A stretch of 24,426 nucleotides of DNA from a virus (lineage: Duplodnaviria > Caudoviricetes), in IMG/VR virus record IMGVR_UViG_3300029775_000018, positions 1 to 24,426 of that record; one strand, given 5' to 3'. The notes under the pieces are model-generated. The model did not search any database. It had not been told where the DNA came from and saw nothing but the letters and a program-made list of their open reading frames with translations. The position numbers and the translations under genes were made by a program. This document shows, piece by piece, positions 14,456 to 22,608 of the stretch. Every line of letters starts with the position of its first letter. Positions within the stretch are counted from its first letter, which is position 1.

Positions 14456-14662
14456 TTAAGGTTTAATGTGTGATTTGATTACTAAAAATTCGCCTGTATA
14501 ACCACCGTCTGTAGTTCTTTGTATCGTGGTACTTTTACACGAAGGGCAAGCCATCATACTACGACCTTCATATCCCCAGTGAAATATAAAGCCTTCTAGG
14601 TCGTCGCTTACCGGGGCGCTATACCCACAGTTCTTACATTGGAAGACCTTACGCCCAGCCAT
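14456..14662 (-). CDS. Small zinc-ribbon protein
   Basis: CKNC ... CPSC; TAATG coupling to sbcD. Confidence 0.65.
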   Translation of the reverse strand: MAGRKVFQCKNCGYSAPVSDDLEGFIFHWGYEGRSMMACPSCKSTTIQRTTDGGYTGEFLVIKSHIKP

Positions 14663-15642
14663 TAGACCACCGTTTCCCTTTGTTGGTCGATTACTTCTAG
14701 GGCTGTTTTTACAACGTCTGGGGCGAAGTTGTTTTCAGCTGCGATAGTGTCTACAATCTGGTTAATATCCATTAAAACCTTACCGCCTGTATGGGTCTGT
14801 ATTAAGGTGCTAAAGGCTTCCATGGCGTACTGCCTTTGTTTTTCTTCTTCGATACGGCTACGGTCTAGGACTTCGTCGCCTGGTCTAGCTGTCGTTAGTG
14901 GTAAAAACTCTATAGTGTGTTTAGCCGTAATAGTGTCTACGTCTATAAGTGCTACCCGTACCTGTCTTTCTATCTCTGATACGCTAGCCGATATACGAAG
15001 CAAGCTTCCCGGATTACAGAATGTCACGCCGTCGGCTCTGTTATAAACGCCATAACCTAAATGGTCGTGTCCTGTAAGCACTATGTCAGCCGTAGAAGGT
15101 ACTTTGTAAAGGTCGCTGTACCTGTCAAAGGGTGGTTTATGGTCTAGTAGCATACCGTGGGCCATGTGTATATTTACGGTGTTCGGTAGTATGTCAACTT
15201 CTGGACTGTACCCGTAACCGTTAATATCCATTTGACGGCTGTAAGGTGTCGCTGTAAGGTAAACCGTGTATCTGCCAGTCGCTAACTCGCAAGCCTTTGG
15301 CTCTGTGATAACGTGTACCTTTGGTACTAACATTTCTAAAAGCCTTAGACTACTACGACCGTAACTATTTAGGTTGTAGCCGTATATATCATGGTTACCT
15401 GGGGTAATATAGATAGGTACGGGGCTTTCGTTTAAGACCTTGGCGTAGCCTAGTAGTACGGCTATTGATACTTCGGGTCTGTCCCATACGTCGCCGGGCA
15501 TTAATATATATTTTGCGTCATGCTCTACAGCTAGTTTAAAAACTTCCTGTAGTTTAGCTACGGCGGTGGTAGGGTAGTCGTCTATTCGGTTTCTGGGGTT
15601 ATTTCCTCTTAGGTGCCAGTCACCAGTAAAGATTAGTTTCAT
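14662..15642 (-). CDS. sbcD: Mre11/SbcD-family metallophosphoesterase nuclease
   Basis: GDWH, GDVWD, GNHD, AHG, GHDH and NPGS motifs; adjacent to the Rad50 C-half. Confidence 0.9.
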   Translation of the reverse strand: MKLIFTGDWHLRGNNPRNRIDDYPTTAVAKLQEVFKLAVEHDAKYILMPGDVWDRPEVSIAVLLGYAKVLNESPVPIYITPGNHDIYGYNLNSYGRSSLRLLEMLVPKVHVITEPKACELATGRYTVYLTATPYSRQMDINGYGYSPEVDILPNTVNIHMAHGMLLDHKPPFDRYSDLYKVPSTADIVLTGHDHLGYGVYNRADGVTFCNPGSLLRISASVSEIERQVRVALIDVDTITAKHTIEFLPLTTARPGDEVLDRSRIEEEKQRQYAMEAFSTLIQTHTGGKVLMDINQIVDTIAAENNFAPDVVKTALEVIDQQRETVV

Positions 15643-16337
15643 AAAGCCGATACCTCACTTTCGCCGTTAGAATGTCGTTTAACGCTTAGTGATACTTCGC
15701 CGATTTCCGCTAGGTCGGCGTTATGCGTAATAAGAATTATCTGTCTTTCAAACTTGGCGCTGTATTCTTTTAAGAAGTAGGCCACGTTTGGGGCGTATTC
15801 TTTGGATACGTGTTTTCCGATTTCATCTAAAAACAAGGGTCCTTGTACGCCTTCCATTTCGCTAATTGCTAACCGAAGGGCTAGGGCTATAATGTCAATC
15901 TTTCCACCGCCACGGTCATAGTCTGGTTTTTCTAGTCTTGTAAGAGTAGTACCGTCGTTTAGCCAGTATTCAGCTACAGGCTGGTTAGCCTTTAAGCCTA
16001 GTTCGATTACGAAACGGTGGTTACCACCGAAGACCACGTTAAGGGCTTCGCTTACGATAGCTTCTATCTGTGATTTAGCTTGACGCCTAGCGTATTCACT
16101 GGTCTTTTGTAGAAGTATCTGTACTTTGTCAAATATCCCTAATTGGTTTTCAGCTTCTAGTTTTCTTTCAGCAGCCTTTACCCGTTGTTCAAGAAGAAGG
16201 TCACGTTTGGCCTTTTGTGCTACCAGCTTGTCACGTGTCGCCTTAAGGTCTGCTTTTATCTTGTTAACACTGTAAGCGCTAACACTAGGCGAAGGGTTTA
16301 TATTATCTGGTGCTTTAAATAGTTCTGTTAATCCCAT
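15639..16337 (-). CDS. Rad50/SbcC ABC-ATPase, C-terminal half
   Basis: Short coiled coil, then signature-like RGGGKIDIIALALR, Walker B LFLDE and H-loop LITHN; no Walker A. Confidence 0.85.
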   Translation of the reverse strand: MGLTELFKAPDNINPSPSVSAYSVNKIKADLKATRDKLVAQKAKRDLLLEQRVKAAERKLEAENQLGIFDKVQILLQKTSEYARRQAKSQIEAIVSEALNVVFGGNHRFVIELGLKANQPVAEYWLNDGTTLTRLEKPDYDRGGGKIDIIALALRLAISEMEGVQGPLFLDEIGKHVSKEYAPNVAYFLKEYSAKFERQIILITHNADLAEIGEVSLSVKRHSNGESEVSAL

Positions 16338-16811: not shown

Positions 16812-17381
16812 TTACACCTTCCTTTTATTTTTATATTTCTTAAAGTATTCTTCTGGTCCTAGTTCTCTAAAGTCCGTGGCTCTTTGGTTGGCTTCTTCTC
16901 TTTTTTCAAGTGGGTAAACCCCTAAGTAGTAGCCTTTACCTTTGTGATATACTCGGACTTCGTAGCGCTGTTTGTCCTTTCGCCAGTGGACGCCCCTAAC
17001 CATAGGTAAGGTCGCTGGGTCGTTCTCTGGTGGCTTATAGACTTGTCCTATAGGTAGGTTTATTAAATTATCCCTTCTACAGTTAAGGCTATCGCCGTCC
17101 TTAAATGCTGTGTTCTCGCCACGTTTTGGTTTAGATAATACGCGGTGTAATAGTGGCTGCTTTTGTGGATAACCGGGTACGGGTTTGCTTTGGGCTGTAC
17201 CTCGTATATAGATAAGGTCGTTAGATGGGTGTACGAAACCGTACCAGCTACCGGGAAACGACTTTATATAATCTAGGTCCTCTACATCTACTAAAACTTC
17301 TAGGTATCCGTAACCCGCATTAGGTGGGGCGTCTACGAAGATAACGCCGACCTTGTCACGTATTACGTATTGATTTTTCAC
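16812..17381 (-). CDS. HNH-AP2 domain protein with degenerate HNH site
   Basis: LHRVL...TAFKDGDSLNCRRDNL (HNH_3-like) followed by AP2-like GVHWRKDKQRYEVRV...YLGVY. Confidence 0.75.
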   Translation of the reverse strand: MKNQYVIRDKVGVIFVDAPPNAGYGYLEVLVDVEDLDYIKSFPGSWYGFVHPSNDLIYIRGTAQSKPVPGYPQKQPLLHRVLSKPKRGENTAFKDGDSLNCRRDNLINLPIGQVYKPPENDPATLPMVRGVHWRKDKQRYEVRVYHKGKGYYLGVYPLEKREEANQRATDFRELGPEEYFKKYKNKRKV

Positions 17382-17393
17382 TCTTTCACCCCC

Positions 17394-19246
17394 TTACGGT
17401 TCTATAAGTGGTAAATTCTCGTCTAAAAATTCCTTTATACGTTCAGCTATAGCCTTGGCTACGGTTGTCGTTACAGCGTTTCCGAATTGCTTGTATGCTT
17501 GGCTATTGCTTACTACTTGGTTCCATGTATCCATTGGGAAGCCTTGAAGCCTTCCGTACTCCGTCGGTGTAAGCTTTCTAACCCTGTAACGGCTATAATC
17601 AAATACTTTTATATGGTGTGTTCCACCAGATACAGCGGTTACGGTAGGGCTTAAACCTTCTGGGTCGTGTACTCGTCGGCTGTGGTCGTGGCTCTTTATG
17701 TCTAACATTCCGACTACATCTATCTGTGGTTCTTCTACTAAAACCTTTGGACCAACACTTCTACCTAACAGGGTGGGGCTTATTCCCTCTGGACTGTAGA
17801 CCCTACGTTGACGCTCGTTATCGTTTAATACGTCTTTTGATATATCTGCAACTTTGATAATCTCACCGTCGGTAGGTTCTAGTATCTTTATCCCTTCGCC
17901 CTTATTAGTGGTTAGGGTAGGGGCTAGTCCGTCAGCGTGAAATACGTTACCGTTCATTCCTCTACCAGATGGATTACTATTAGCTACGTTCATAATTTCG
18001 GGCTGTTTTTCTAGCAATAAATTATCTTTTAGGACTGTAGTAAGCGTGTTACTTATATCATCTGGTCTTGGTTCTAGTTGCCGTATATTAGCCCATTTTT
18101 CTTTTACGTTTCCAGCTTCGTAATCTTTTCGGATAGCCTTACCGTATTCAGTTCTTACAGGTCTAAGTACGGCGCTATCTTCAAGTAGTAGCTTAGGTTC
18201 TTTATAGTCACTAGCCAGTAGCGTAGGGGTTTGTCCTACAGATGGGGTATTTTTACCGAAGTCTTTTGTATTGATAACTACAGCGTCTTCGATTACTTTT
18301 ACGCCTTGCCTACTCTGTCTTAAGGTGGGGCTAGCTTCGTCGTATACTCTAGGTTCTTTGTCATAGCCGAAAGTATCGTCTATAATTACGCCGTGTAGGT
18401 CTTGGGCTGTAAGTGTGAACATTTCTTCTTCGTCAGTCTTTGCACGTCTACCGTTTTGGCGTTTCTCTACCCGGTCGGGGGTAATAGTAGCGTGTACATA
18501 GCCTAGGCTTTCCAGCTTCTTTAAGGCTTGGTCTATAATGGTCCGTGCCTTTTCGTCGCTTATGTAGTACTTTTCGTCTACGTTAGTTTCTAAAACGCTG
18601 GATAACTTCGGTACGTAATCGTGCTGTTCAGTAGGGAATATAAATTCTGCGTCTATGTCGTCCCGGATACCTACAACGAAATACCTTTCCCTGTTCTGCG
18701 GTACGTCCCAATACTTAGAGTTGTAAAGCGTATAGTAGGCTTTATAGCCACGTTTGGCGTATTCCGTTTCTAGTATGGGAAGATATTTTCTTAATGCTTT
18801 TACGTTTTCGGCCATTATTACTAGCGGTCGCTTCTGGCTCTCTCTCTCTCTGTAGCTTCATCAAGTAGTCGCATTATTTCGAAGAACAGACCACTACGAT
18901 TAGCAGCTTTAAAATCGTCGCTTTGACAATTAGGGCAATTCTGATTATTTGTATCAAGTTTCCACTTAGTACCACAGGTGTTACATTCGGTTTCCATTCC
19001 CGCCTGGTTACCAGCGACGCTAAGGTCTTGACAAGGGAAGCCGAAAGTCCACGCTGTGGCCTTTGGTACGTCCTCTATAGTCATTGTGGTAATGTCTTTT
19101 TCTTCTACGTGGTCGCCTACATTTTCTTTGTATGTCTGTACAGCGTATTTATCAAAGTCCCAGGCTTTTTCTATATCAAAACCAGCGTCCTTAAAACCTA
19201 TACCTAGACCACCAGCACCACAAAAGAAGTCGTTTAATGTGTACAA
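17394..19246 (-). pseudogene. C5-cytosine DNA methyltransferase with multi-TRD region, frameshifted at an (AG)7 tract (ORFs 18821..19246 and 17394..18815)
   Basis: Motif I FCGAGG, IV GFPCQ and V RSGLFFE in the upstream ORF (likely TTG start at 19246 after AGGAG); VI ENV, VIII PQNRER, IX RKLTP.E..RLQGF and X YKQFGNAV in the downstream ORF. Confidence 0.88.
18838..18851. repeat. (CT)7 / (AG)7 dinucleotide microsatellite at the MTase frameshift
   Basis: Plus strand ctctctctctctct; removing one unit restores the reading frame. Confidence 0.95.
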
Positions 19247-20691
19247 TGTGTATTGCTCCTTTCTGTAGGCTGTTCGCATAACGGACAAATACCGCCCGTT
19301 TCAGCCCATGCTGTTTGTAGTTCCTCTGTAGCTTTACTAACTTCTAATATCGCTTCGCCTAAAAGCTGCTTACGGTCTTCTACAGTACGGGTTGCGTCTT
19401 CATGCTTACTAAGTAACGCTATAAGACCCTGTATTTTTAATTCTGTAGAAGTACAAGCCGTTATTTTGCCTTTTAAGGCGTTTGTAGGCTCTAGGCTAGC
19501 TAGTCTATCAATTAATGTTTTCTGTGCGTTCTGGGTTACCCTGTGCTTTCCTAGTAGGGTATTAAGCTGTTCACTATTGGTAAAATTCCTTACTACATTA
19601 GCGACAAGATTTATCGTGTCAAGAACCTTGTCAGCGGCCAGTATAGTGGCTTTGTGGCGTTTAATTAGTTCCTGTAAACCCCTGTAACGTGTCTGTATGT
19701 CCTTTAACTCTATTAGCCTAACTTCCCAATGGCTTAGGTCTTTTGTACGCTGTAACAGGCTAGGAACGTCCTTTAAATCTCGTATTAATTGGCTAGCGTT
19801 CTTACTGTCGTTTACGGCCTTCCAAAAGTCGTCTTGTAGCTTTTCTATAATCTGCTTACGGTCTTCCGATAGTCCCACAGCTTTTAGGTTTATTAGAAGG
19901 GCTGGGACCATCTGTAAAGGCTCTAATTTTTGATTAAGTTCTACAATTCGATTAGTTAGGGCTTCGTGTTGGTTCTTTTTCTCTACTAAGTCCTTTTGTA
20001 GGGATAGATTACTTTCTACTGTCTGGAAGCGTATTTCTAATCCCTCTAGGACGTTGTAATAGTCGTCTACCTCTAGGTACTCTAAAAGCTCTACGTCTAG
20101 CTGTCCTATCTGTTTGTCTGCCTGTGCTAATTCGGTTCTAGTATTATGGGTCCGTTTGTTTACGGCTCCTATGGCCTTGTCTACGACCTCTGTACCAGCC
20201 AATTTACCTAATACTTTCGCCCCGGTTCCACCTGTTTCCGATAGAAGGAAGGGGGGGTCTAACTGGAAGGCGAAGTTTAAACAGATTTCGAAGTTGTCGC
20301 CGTAGGTCTGCTTTGTAAGTCCTAGGGCGTCTTTAATTTCCTGTGGTACCTCTGCTTTTTCCCATGGTTCGGGGTATAAACTGTGTATATATGTCGTTTT
20401 ACCTTTGCGTCTGGTCTTCGTGATACTAACGCCGTTGTCAAAGTTAACTGTTACTTCTGCCTGTTCTTCCTGTTCCTTGATAGAACCGTCGGCGTTTCTT
20501 ACTGTGTATAAGAAGCCTTCGCCCTGTGGTTCGTTAAAAGCCAACCAGCGAAGCGCTCTTATAACGGCTGTTTTACCAGCGTCGCTAGGTCCCGTAATTA
20601 CGGTAAGTCCGGGGGATAGGTTAAAGCTGCTTTCCTTGTGGCTTTGAAACCCTTTTATAACTACGTCTTTAATCTCTAGCACTCTGGACAT
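19234..20691 (-). CDS. Rad50/SbcC ABC-ATPase, N-terminal half ending in a zinc-hook-like CxxC
   Basis: IKGFQSH, Walker A GPSDAGKT, Q-loop NFAFQLD, long helical region, CPLC close to the C-terminus; no signature or Walker B. Confidence 0.87.
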   Translation of the reverse strand: MSRVLEIKDVVIKGFQSHKESSFNLSPGLTVITGPSDAGKTAVIRALRWLAFNEPQGEGFLYTVRNADGSIKEQEEQAEVTVNFDNGVSITKTRRKGKTTYIHSLYPEPWEKAEVPQEIKDALGLTKQTYGDNFEICLNFAFQLDPPFLLSETGGTGAKVLGKLAGTEVVDKAIGAVNKRTHNTRTELAQADKQIGQLDVELLEYLEVDDYYNVLEGLEIRFQTVESNLSLQKDLVEKKNQHEALTNRIVELNQKLEPLQMVPALLINLKAVGLSEDRKQIIEKLQDDFWKAVNDSKNASQLIRDLKDVPSLLQRTKDLSHWEVRLIELKDIQTRYRGLQELIKRHKATILAADKVLDTINLVANVVRNFTNSEQLNTLLGKHRVTQNAQKTLIDRLASLEPTNALKGKITACTSTELKIQGLIALLSKHEDATRTVEDRKQLLGEAILEVSKATEELQTAWAETGGICPLCEQPTERSNTHCTH

Positions 20692-22193: not shown

Positions 22194-22222
22194 ATTATAC
22201 ATCTTATAATTTATAGTGTCAA
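22194..22222 (-). promoter_or_regulatory. Consensus sigma-A promoter for the Rha gene
   Basis: TTGACA-17 nt-TATAAT on the minus strand. Confidence 0.85.
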
Positions 22223-22262
22223 GTGTTATTTGAAATAATTTTATTTATTTTGAAATCACAGA

Positions 22263-22291
22263 TTGACAATTGAAACTGAATAATGTATAAT
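22263..22291 (+). promoter_or_regulatory. Consensus sigma-A promoter for the divergent HTH gene
   Basis: TTGACA-17 nt-TATAAT. Confidence 0.85.
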
Positions 22292-22305
22292 TGTCACATA
22301 GACAA
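22291..22305. promoter_or_regulatory. Operator-like palindrome TTGTC-N5-GACAA
   Basis: TTGTCACATAGACAA, starting on the last base of the -10 box. Confidence 0.65.
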
Positions 22306-22325
22306 CTTGAAAGGGGGTGGTGTAT

Positions 22326-22538
22326 ATGGGAATGTCTGAAAAGATAAAGATAGTCTTGCTTAAAAAGAAAATGACAGTAACTAAGTTGGCAGAAAAGATA
22401 GGGTCGTCCTCTCAAAACCTTAGCAACAAACTAAGCCAGGACAACTTTAGGGAAAAGGAATTACAGGAAATAGCCGAAGCACTAGACTGTGACTACGAAG
22501 CGAATTTCGTACTAAGGGATACAGGCGAAAAAGTGTAA
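22326..22538 (+). CDS. Small XRE/Cro-like HTH regulator
   Basis: MTVTKLAEKIGSSSQNLSNKL...EL.EIAEALDC; GGGGGTG SD before ATG 22326. Confidence 0.85.
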   Translation: MGMSEKIKIVLLKKKMTVTKLAEKIGSSSQNLSNKLSQDNFREKELQEIAEALDCDYEANFVLRDTGEKV

Positions 22539-22541
22539 AAT

Positions 22542-22579
22542 AAAAAACCTATTTACTTTTGATAGTAGATAGGTTTTTT
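22542..22579. terminator. Intrinsic, potentially bidirectional terminator
   Basis: AAAAAACCTATTTACT-tttgat-AGTAGATAGGTTTTTT right after the stop codon. Confidence 0.8.
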
Positions 22580-22580
22580 A

Positions 22581-22608
22581 TTGCCATTTTATAAAGTTGT
22601 GCTATACT
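22581..22608 (+). promoter_or_regulatory. Sigma-A promoter with extended -10
   Basis: TTGCCA-16 nt-TATACT with TGn. Confidence 0.65.

Follow-up and report, generated by a model that had tools for sequence, protein, structure and literature searches.

A candidate AG-repeat contingency switch in a multi-module phage C5 methyltransferase gene

In a 24,426-nucleotide stretch of caudoviricete phage DNA (IMG/VR record IMGVR_UViG_3300029775_000018; the whole analysed stretch is called the window below), an orphan C5 cytosine DNA methyltransferase gene is split just 5' of motif VI by a perfect (CT)7 run on the plus strand at 18838-18851, which is (AG)7 on the coding minus strand. The reading frame depends on the number of AG units, and breaks at this site are, among the loci listed, confined to genes that carry the tract. 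Because tract length differs among near-identical copies, both in and out of frame, we consider the locus probably (roughly 0.6, judged from sequence comparison) to be a phage contingency locus, in which a reversible AG slippage switch before motif VI is now OFF.

The split gene and its AG tract

The sequence-only reading had claimed that two methyltransferase ORFs meet at an (AG)7 tract near motif VI and that 6 or 9 units would join the halves into one enzyme. We located the tract where that reading had put it, and the second claim was borne out when both frames were read. The features of the locus are:

17394..18815, minus strand: C-terminal ORF, 473 aa from MAENVK, with motifs VI and VIII, the module array, and motifs IX and X (PF00145, E 1e-28)
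17598..18497, minus strand: array of ~7 repeated target-recognition-like modules (TL-type motifs; modules counted by eye)
18742..18864, minus strand: third-frame ORF of 40 codons, the run-out frame for 5 or 8 units
18821..19279, minus strand: N-terminal half of the C5 methyltransferase, C terminus ERERARSDR before the stop (PF00145, E 1e-22)
18838..18851, minus strand: (AG)7 tract, placed in the linker that precedes motif VI; unit counts in multiples of 3 are in frame, 7 is out
18926..18985, minus strand: CxxC...CxxC insert after motif IV (weak HypA match under the cut-off)
19028..19039, minus strand: catalytic motif IV, FPCQ (sequence motif)
19208..19225, minus strand: SAM-binding motif I, FCGAGG (sequence motif)

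The upstream frame ends ...RLLDEATERERARSDR, that is, ATERERARSDR followed by a stop at 18823-18821. The downstream frame is open through the tract (...RERESQKRPLVIMAENVK) and runs ESQKRPLVIMAENVK into the 473-aa ORF at 18815-17394 (minus strand), so that 6 or 9 units would fuse both halves. On its own, the C-terminal ORF is without the PLVI residues that precede ENV. The 40-codon third-frame ORF matches the truncated tails of three related proteins (P0130, P0132, and P0244). For the N-terminal half, TTG at 19246 behind AAGGAG is more likely the start than ATG at 19279, because relatives begin MYTLNDFF. The tract is the longest dinucleotide repeat of the window, and all other dinucleotide runs in these 24.4 kb have at most 5 units; a run of 7 units arose in 2 of 400 order-1 and 0 of 400 order-3 Markov simulations. 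A simple repeat thus lies inside the coding region, with its length setting the reading frame, as in SSR phase-variable genes.

Motifs I, IV (PCQ), VI (ENV), VIII, IX, and X occur in the order expected of a C5 cytosine DNA methyltransferase (PF00145, TIGR00675), spread over two frames in the window and on a single chain in its intact relative P0002. Between motifs VIII and IX sit consecutive, homologous modules, the arrangement of multispecific phage C5 methyltransferases of the rho11s/SPR type. The rho11s and SPR methylases are multispecific. The last module aligns with the recognition region of M.HhaI, on whose sequence alignment our statements about the fold rest, and others match modules of the phage rho11s methylase (51% over 41 aa and 44% over 86 aa); the SPR and H2 methylases are also matched by the array. 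Module content varies among close relatives by gains, losses, and swaps. Nearby on this partial-genome contig we found no cognate restriction enzyme, in keeping with the rho11s/SPR type. Taken together, the window enzyme is predicted to be a multispecific-type C5 methyltransferase. The CxxC...CxxC insert, probably a zinc ribbon, marks one subfamily and is missing from others.

We examined the tract in Logan contigs of four runs (X1-X4), which represent four samples of one study, three of them possibly the source of the window itself. Contigs of X1-X3 cover 17300-19400 without any difference from the window, and a 235-nt contig of X4 crosses the tract gap-free with 7 units. RNA runs contained only 0.05-0.13 of the words and were excluded from analysis. 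The sequence-only reading had allowed that (AG)6 might be the true state and the seventh unit an assembly error; the contigs carry 7, not 6. Repeats are indeed error-prone, and the possible shared source weakens the agreement of three runs; however, all four samples agree, one of them on a second haplotype that differs from the window at 17755, diverged lineages (L012, P0129, and P0131) again have 7 units, and tract lengths are mostly well below the k-mer size. Assembly or sequencing stutter is therefore largely refuted, and we give it almost no weight. As to the proposed ON/OFF slippage switch, frame dependence and length variation in relatives (below) stood up, but switching within a population was not seen in these contigs, which drop rare alleles and carried 7 units in 4 of 4 runs. 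At 17755, one module of the window encodes Val (GRSVGP), and relatives and run X4 encode Asp (GRSDGP); the Val is possibly drift after switch-off.

Tract length and reading frame among relatives

Near-identical proteins imply 6, 9, and 12 units where the gene is intact and 7 and 10 units where it is broken, with unit numbers near the window mostly back-read from protein translations rather than DNA; alleles spanning 5 to 12 units exist. The C-terminal half of the window clusters with the intact proteins P0002 (627 aa, ATERESQ, 6 units) and P0123 (12 units), and the N-terminal half clusters with 7-unit stubs and the 10-unit stub P0239. The OFF C-terminal half P0125 matches intact P0002 at every one of its 473 residues, and P0239, its presumed N-terminal half, assigned to it because their contigs are equally long, differs at 1 of 134. 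Likewise, OFF P0129 (7 units) equals ON P0243 (6 units) across 146 residues, and OFF P0241 differs from ON P0123 at 1 of 146. In a sister lineage, P0005, P0127, and P0130 imply 6, 9, and 5 units. DNA confirms 6 (L128), 7 (L012), and 8 (L132) units in the same ATERE context. Length therefore varies in and out of frame on near-identical backgrounds, as in a contingency locus, and the expansions to 9 and 12 in-frame units would be the expected outcome of repeated slippage. The concerns raised beforehand, that homologues might lack the tract or be invariant in length and that the gene might carry other decay lesions, did not materialize: homologues have the tract and its length varies both ways, and the window copy shows 5 residue differences from P0002 and no second break. 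Records of the window's phage are mostly OFF (23 contigs with a truncated N-terminal half versus 2 intact), an excess that possibly reflects repeated assemblies. An exact-flank DNA scan of viral contigs gave no match; a metagenome scan gave 13 loci, of which 11 were chance matches, 1 was an identical copy (L014), and 1 was a distant 7-unit locus (L012).

Across the family, a tract-blind scan of viral sequences, using a pattern upstream of the tract, returned at least 87 loci. Nine of those listed were without a readable motif VI (7 chance matches, 1 contig end, and 1 tract-to-tract deletion). Among the remaining 78 listed loci, the frame was shifted before ENV in 2 of 15 with a tract (at least 10 nt) versus 0 of 63 without one (p 0.035). 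When tract-selected loci were added and 19 refetched or identical loci removed, a frameshift at the tract was found, among the matches listed, in 10 of 30 tract loci versus 0 of 64 tract-free loci (p 3e-6); these loci are non-independent, the tract loci occupying 10 of 50 clusters. Two clusters at 85% identity contained both states (OFF in 3 of 15 and 3 of 7). Relatives with the tract occur in genome records of Clostridia, Lachnospiraceae, and Firmicutes (6 loci), and truncated forms are recorded from Blautia massiliensis and Blautia producta. At the equivalent linker of a distant short-linker enzyme (L090), a (GA)6 run, likely of independent origin, is in frame.

These counts also bear on whether 7 units is OFF at all. 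A two-chain enzyme could be made by re-initiation at ATG 18815, or a two-base slip of the ribosome or RNA polymerase could yield some full enzyme. The second ATG lies 5 nt past the stop, many relatives appear naturally split later in the gene, and, by sequence logic, a two-base slip on GAG/AGA would re-pair perfectly. However, a restart would lose PLVI, the counterpart in the alignment of the conserved residues that lead into motif VI of M.HhaI; no stimulatory structure was detected (z -0.4); tract-free loci are split here in 0 of 64 cases among the matches listed; and DNA length variation already accounts for the pattern. We regard such leaky or split expression as unlikely. Programmed ribosomal frameshifting as the main mechanism was considered separately and rejected, since the layout varies and there is no downstream structure.

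To place the tract in the history of the family, we used a tree built by a quick method from 69 rows without the linker, in which some protein rows were tract-labelled by amino acids only. Rows with the tract made up 13 of 17 in the clade holding the window (support 96); the remaining tract rows were an ETERERE clade apart from it and two isolated rows. A single origin of the tract was only marginally rejected (AU p 0.046, for a group chosen after the tree was seen). The tract is perfect even though four-fold sites differ at 8 of 17 to 12 of 14 positions when the window is compared with five lineages of its clade that also carry it; the L012 rows, misaligned by a 6-nt indel, were left out of this comparison. 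Its codons are rare in the window phage, where GAG makes up 17% of Glu codons; the expectation for a perfect ERE is 0.008, and none of the 25 other ERE tripeptides is a perfect repeat. Because slippage alone generates perfect repeats, this perfection is support rather than proof. Repeats of all kinds numbered 30 in 47.6 kb of methylase gene versus 6 in 120 kb of flank (39 representatives), a density ~13-fold above the flanks in which glycine-rich loops may inflate the G runs. These figures replace a first estimate of enrichment (93 in 63 kb versus 4 in 101 kb) that was partly circular.

Decay of the gene is also evident in the family. Among 39 loci with a readable core, we counted 9 breaks in repeat-bearing segments and 6 elsewhere, and 2 of the latter 6 belong to AG-OFF copies; L131 has an additional stop absent from this count. 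The protein P0126 is in frame, yet FHCQ replaces FPCQ, and the module region of P0094 is reduced. Given the non-repeat lesions, the FHCQ of P0126, and the excess of OFF records, the gene can sometimes be dispensed with, and the neutral-hotspot account is a live rival: the tract would slip in a dispensable gene, neutrally or as one-way prophage decay, rather than as a selected hedge. Glu-Arg linkers can seed AG runs (relatives without the tract have ETREN), and L081 retains the amino acids with an interrupted tract. Against this reading, eight breaks fall within one 14-nt site versus six across 31 kb, the tract stays perfect despite ~50% silent-site change and in rare codons, repeats are ~13-fold denser than in the flanks, and the window copy has no second lesion. 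We therefore consider the neutral hotspot a serious but distinctly less probable account than a reversible switch.

Two results go beyond the earlier reading: the enzyme is a multi-module methylase of the multispecific type, and several tracts of this kind are present in its relatives. In one lineage from the gut (L046, L050, L119-L121, and L130), each methylase gene has four AG tracts of 10-30 nt, all of which vary from contig to contig. Which of the module sequences, stacked in two frames, is selected depends on the second tract, and likely internal starts precede the third and fourth. Some shorter proteins (P0017, P0141, and P0142) and L080 resemble tract-to-tract deletions, whether real or assembly-made. 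Another lineage has poly-G at module borders. In a separate gut phage subfamily (L021, L033, L037, L048, L049, L070, and L076), a G6-G9 run lies just past motif VI (ENV); among the matches listed, loci with poly-G there were shifted in 6 of 14 cases versus 2 of 77, one of these two probably a motif mis-hit. The cultured relative Roseburia phage Shimadzu (L134:1489-3207, orf41/orf42) carries one G8 and one G10 tract, each out of frame, and its methylase is apparently split into two chains; the main text of the preprint (10.1101/575076) makes no mention of these tracts. The window gene itself carries only the master tract before motif VI. On the basis of the extra AG and poly-G tracts in relatives, we tentatively suggest that this family of multispecific C5 methylases in Clostridia phages might work as combinatorial repeat switches, with an AG master for on and off and AG or G tracts at module borders choosing which modules are translated. 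If so, progeny would receive many different methylation patterns from a single gene, in a phage parallel to host restriction systems that shuffle their specificity.

Genome setting and possible purpose

The window represents the replication arm of a phage, with PolA, primase-helicase, helicase, resolvase, SbcC/D-like, Rha, and HTH genes. The methylase sits within a one-strand run of replication genes, with SbcC-like and HNH-like genes as neighbours. The SbcC-like ATPase appears to be encoded as separate N- and C-terminal genes (14662-16337 and 19234-20691), with an SbcD-like nuclease, and the methylase and HNH-like gene interrupt this split region. A search of viral contigs for relatives of the neighbouring SbcC-like gene found none, and the 29 window proteins gave only ATPase, HTH, and helicase-domain matches in PADLOC. 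At 22194-22582 are two perfect divergent sigma-70-type promoters, a 19-pair terminator, and a plus-strand ORF of 73 codons that is small-repressor-like, with no NCBIfam or PADLOC match. The AT-rich DNA past 23.5 kb may be a prophage edge. The divergent promoter pair and the Rha/HTH genes near 20.7-22.5 kb suggest that the phage is temperate.

Positions 1-22200 of the window are wholly without GATC, GANTC, GDGCHC, GCATC, GTCTC, CATCG, and CCTGA, and are depleted of GGCC, CCWGG, CCGG, GCGC, and CGCG, at the top of 268 patterns tested. GGCC, CCGG, CCWGG, and GDGCHC are targets of the SPR and rho11s enzymes. Such absence and depletion point to restriction pressure on the phage and are circumstantial evidence for a hedge.

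Under a reversible switch, replication slippage would add or delete AG units and so produce ON and OFF progeny. With 6, 9, or 12 units, a single multi-module enzyme would be made, every three further units inserting Glu-Arg into a linker that appears tolerant. Other lengths would give a stub and a C-terminal half without the residues leading into ENV, and for that reason the out-of-frame states would be inactive. The purpose may be that ON genomes, 5mC-marked at several sites, evade Type II nucleases, and that OFF genomes evade methyl-directed Type IV nucleases and spare the lysogen the cost. Such a hedge between the two types of restriction would fit the genome's avoidance of restriction sites and the precedent described for T2 agt in the main text of PMC12633550.

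The switch could instead serve the lysogen as a phasevarion, flipping the host methylome and gene expression. The signs of a temperate phage noted above (the promoter pair with Rha/HTH genes), the OFF forms in Blautia genome records, and the listing of AG-repeat methylases as phase-variable candidates in Helicobacter pylori (cited passages of PMC3411764) are in its favour, but the position of the gene within the one-strand replication run would probably make it lytic-early and silent in lysogens. We consider this role very improbable.

Comparison with known systems

The window enzyme resembles the rho11s, SPR, and H2 methylases as an orphan phage C5 enzyme with arrayed modules. It differs from them in its ~7 modules, its CxxC insert, and its candidate repeat switch; the rho11s record is without such a repeat. 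In Bacillus temperate phages, arrayed recognition domains are described as protecting against many restriction systems (cited passages of PMC12707154).

AG repeats that set the frame of a methylase are described in bacteria. M.HpyAVIB of H. pylori is a C5 enzyme with AG repeats in its coding region whose unit number sets the frame (PMC3411764, cited passages), and M.MmyCI of Mycoplasma mycoides, a Type III adenine methylase, is active with 10 AG units and inactive with 12 (PMC3498834). As described there, they share frame-setting AG repeats with the window but are chromosomal bacterial genes without a module array. Among phages, the methylase of the phages BPP-1/BIP-1/BMP-1 of Bordetella has a poly-G tract, as cited in passages of PMC4791379 and PMC12633550; one of these papers calls it an adenine methylase and the other a thymine methylase, and neither passage points to further study. 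As cited, that gene is like the window's in having a variable repeat in a phage methylase gene with proposed control of expression, and unlike it in that the repeat is poly-G.

Our literature search, which covered sources other than subscription papers, turned up no description of a phage C5 methylase with a repeat switch; the supplementary repeat tables of Gomez et al. could list methylase genes. A word search of PMC10477858 likewise gave no match, and neither "methyltransferase" nor "dinucleotide" occurs in the main text of PMC12633550. The contingency-locus concept is already published (T2 agt, main text of PMC12633550), and for the window's enzyme family no report was found in these sources.

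The first demonstration of contingency loci in phages dates from 2025 and concerns homopolymers of coliphages: in the main text of that study, T2 agt and T4 rIIA are A homopolymers of lytic coliphages with measured reversion (Gomez, Barrick, and Waters 2025, PMC12633550). If the window locus is such a switch, many database entries for "truncated" phage methylases probably represent switch states rather than pseudogenes. The locus would be a conserved dinucleotide type acting on an anti-restriction methylase in phages of Firmicutes from gut and digester, where ON and OFF alleles found in nature can be compared, and would open the idea of bet-hedging between restriction of Type II and of Type IV to testing in a second class of enzyme. 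As T2 agt is described there, the two share a repeat-driven frameshift in a phage DNA-modification gene that would hedge between two kinds of restriction; relative to T2 agt and T4 rIIA, the window combines a dinucleotide repeat, a C5 methyltransferase, and a likely temperate Firmicutes phage, and is known by comparison only.
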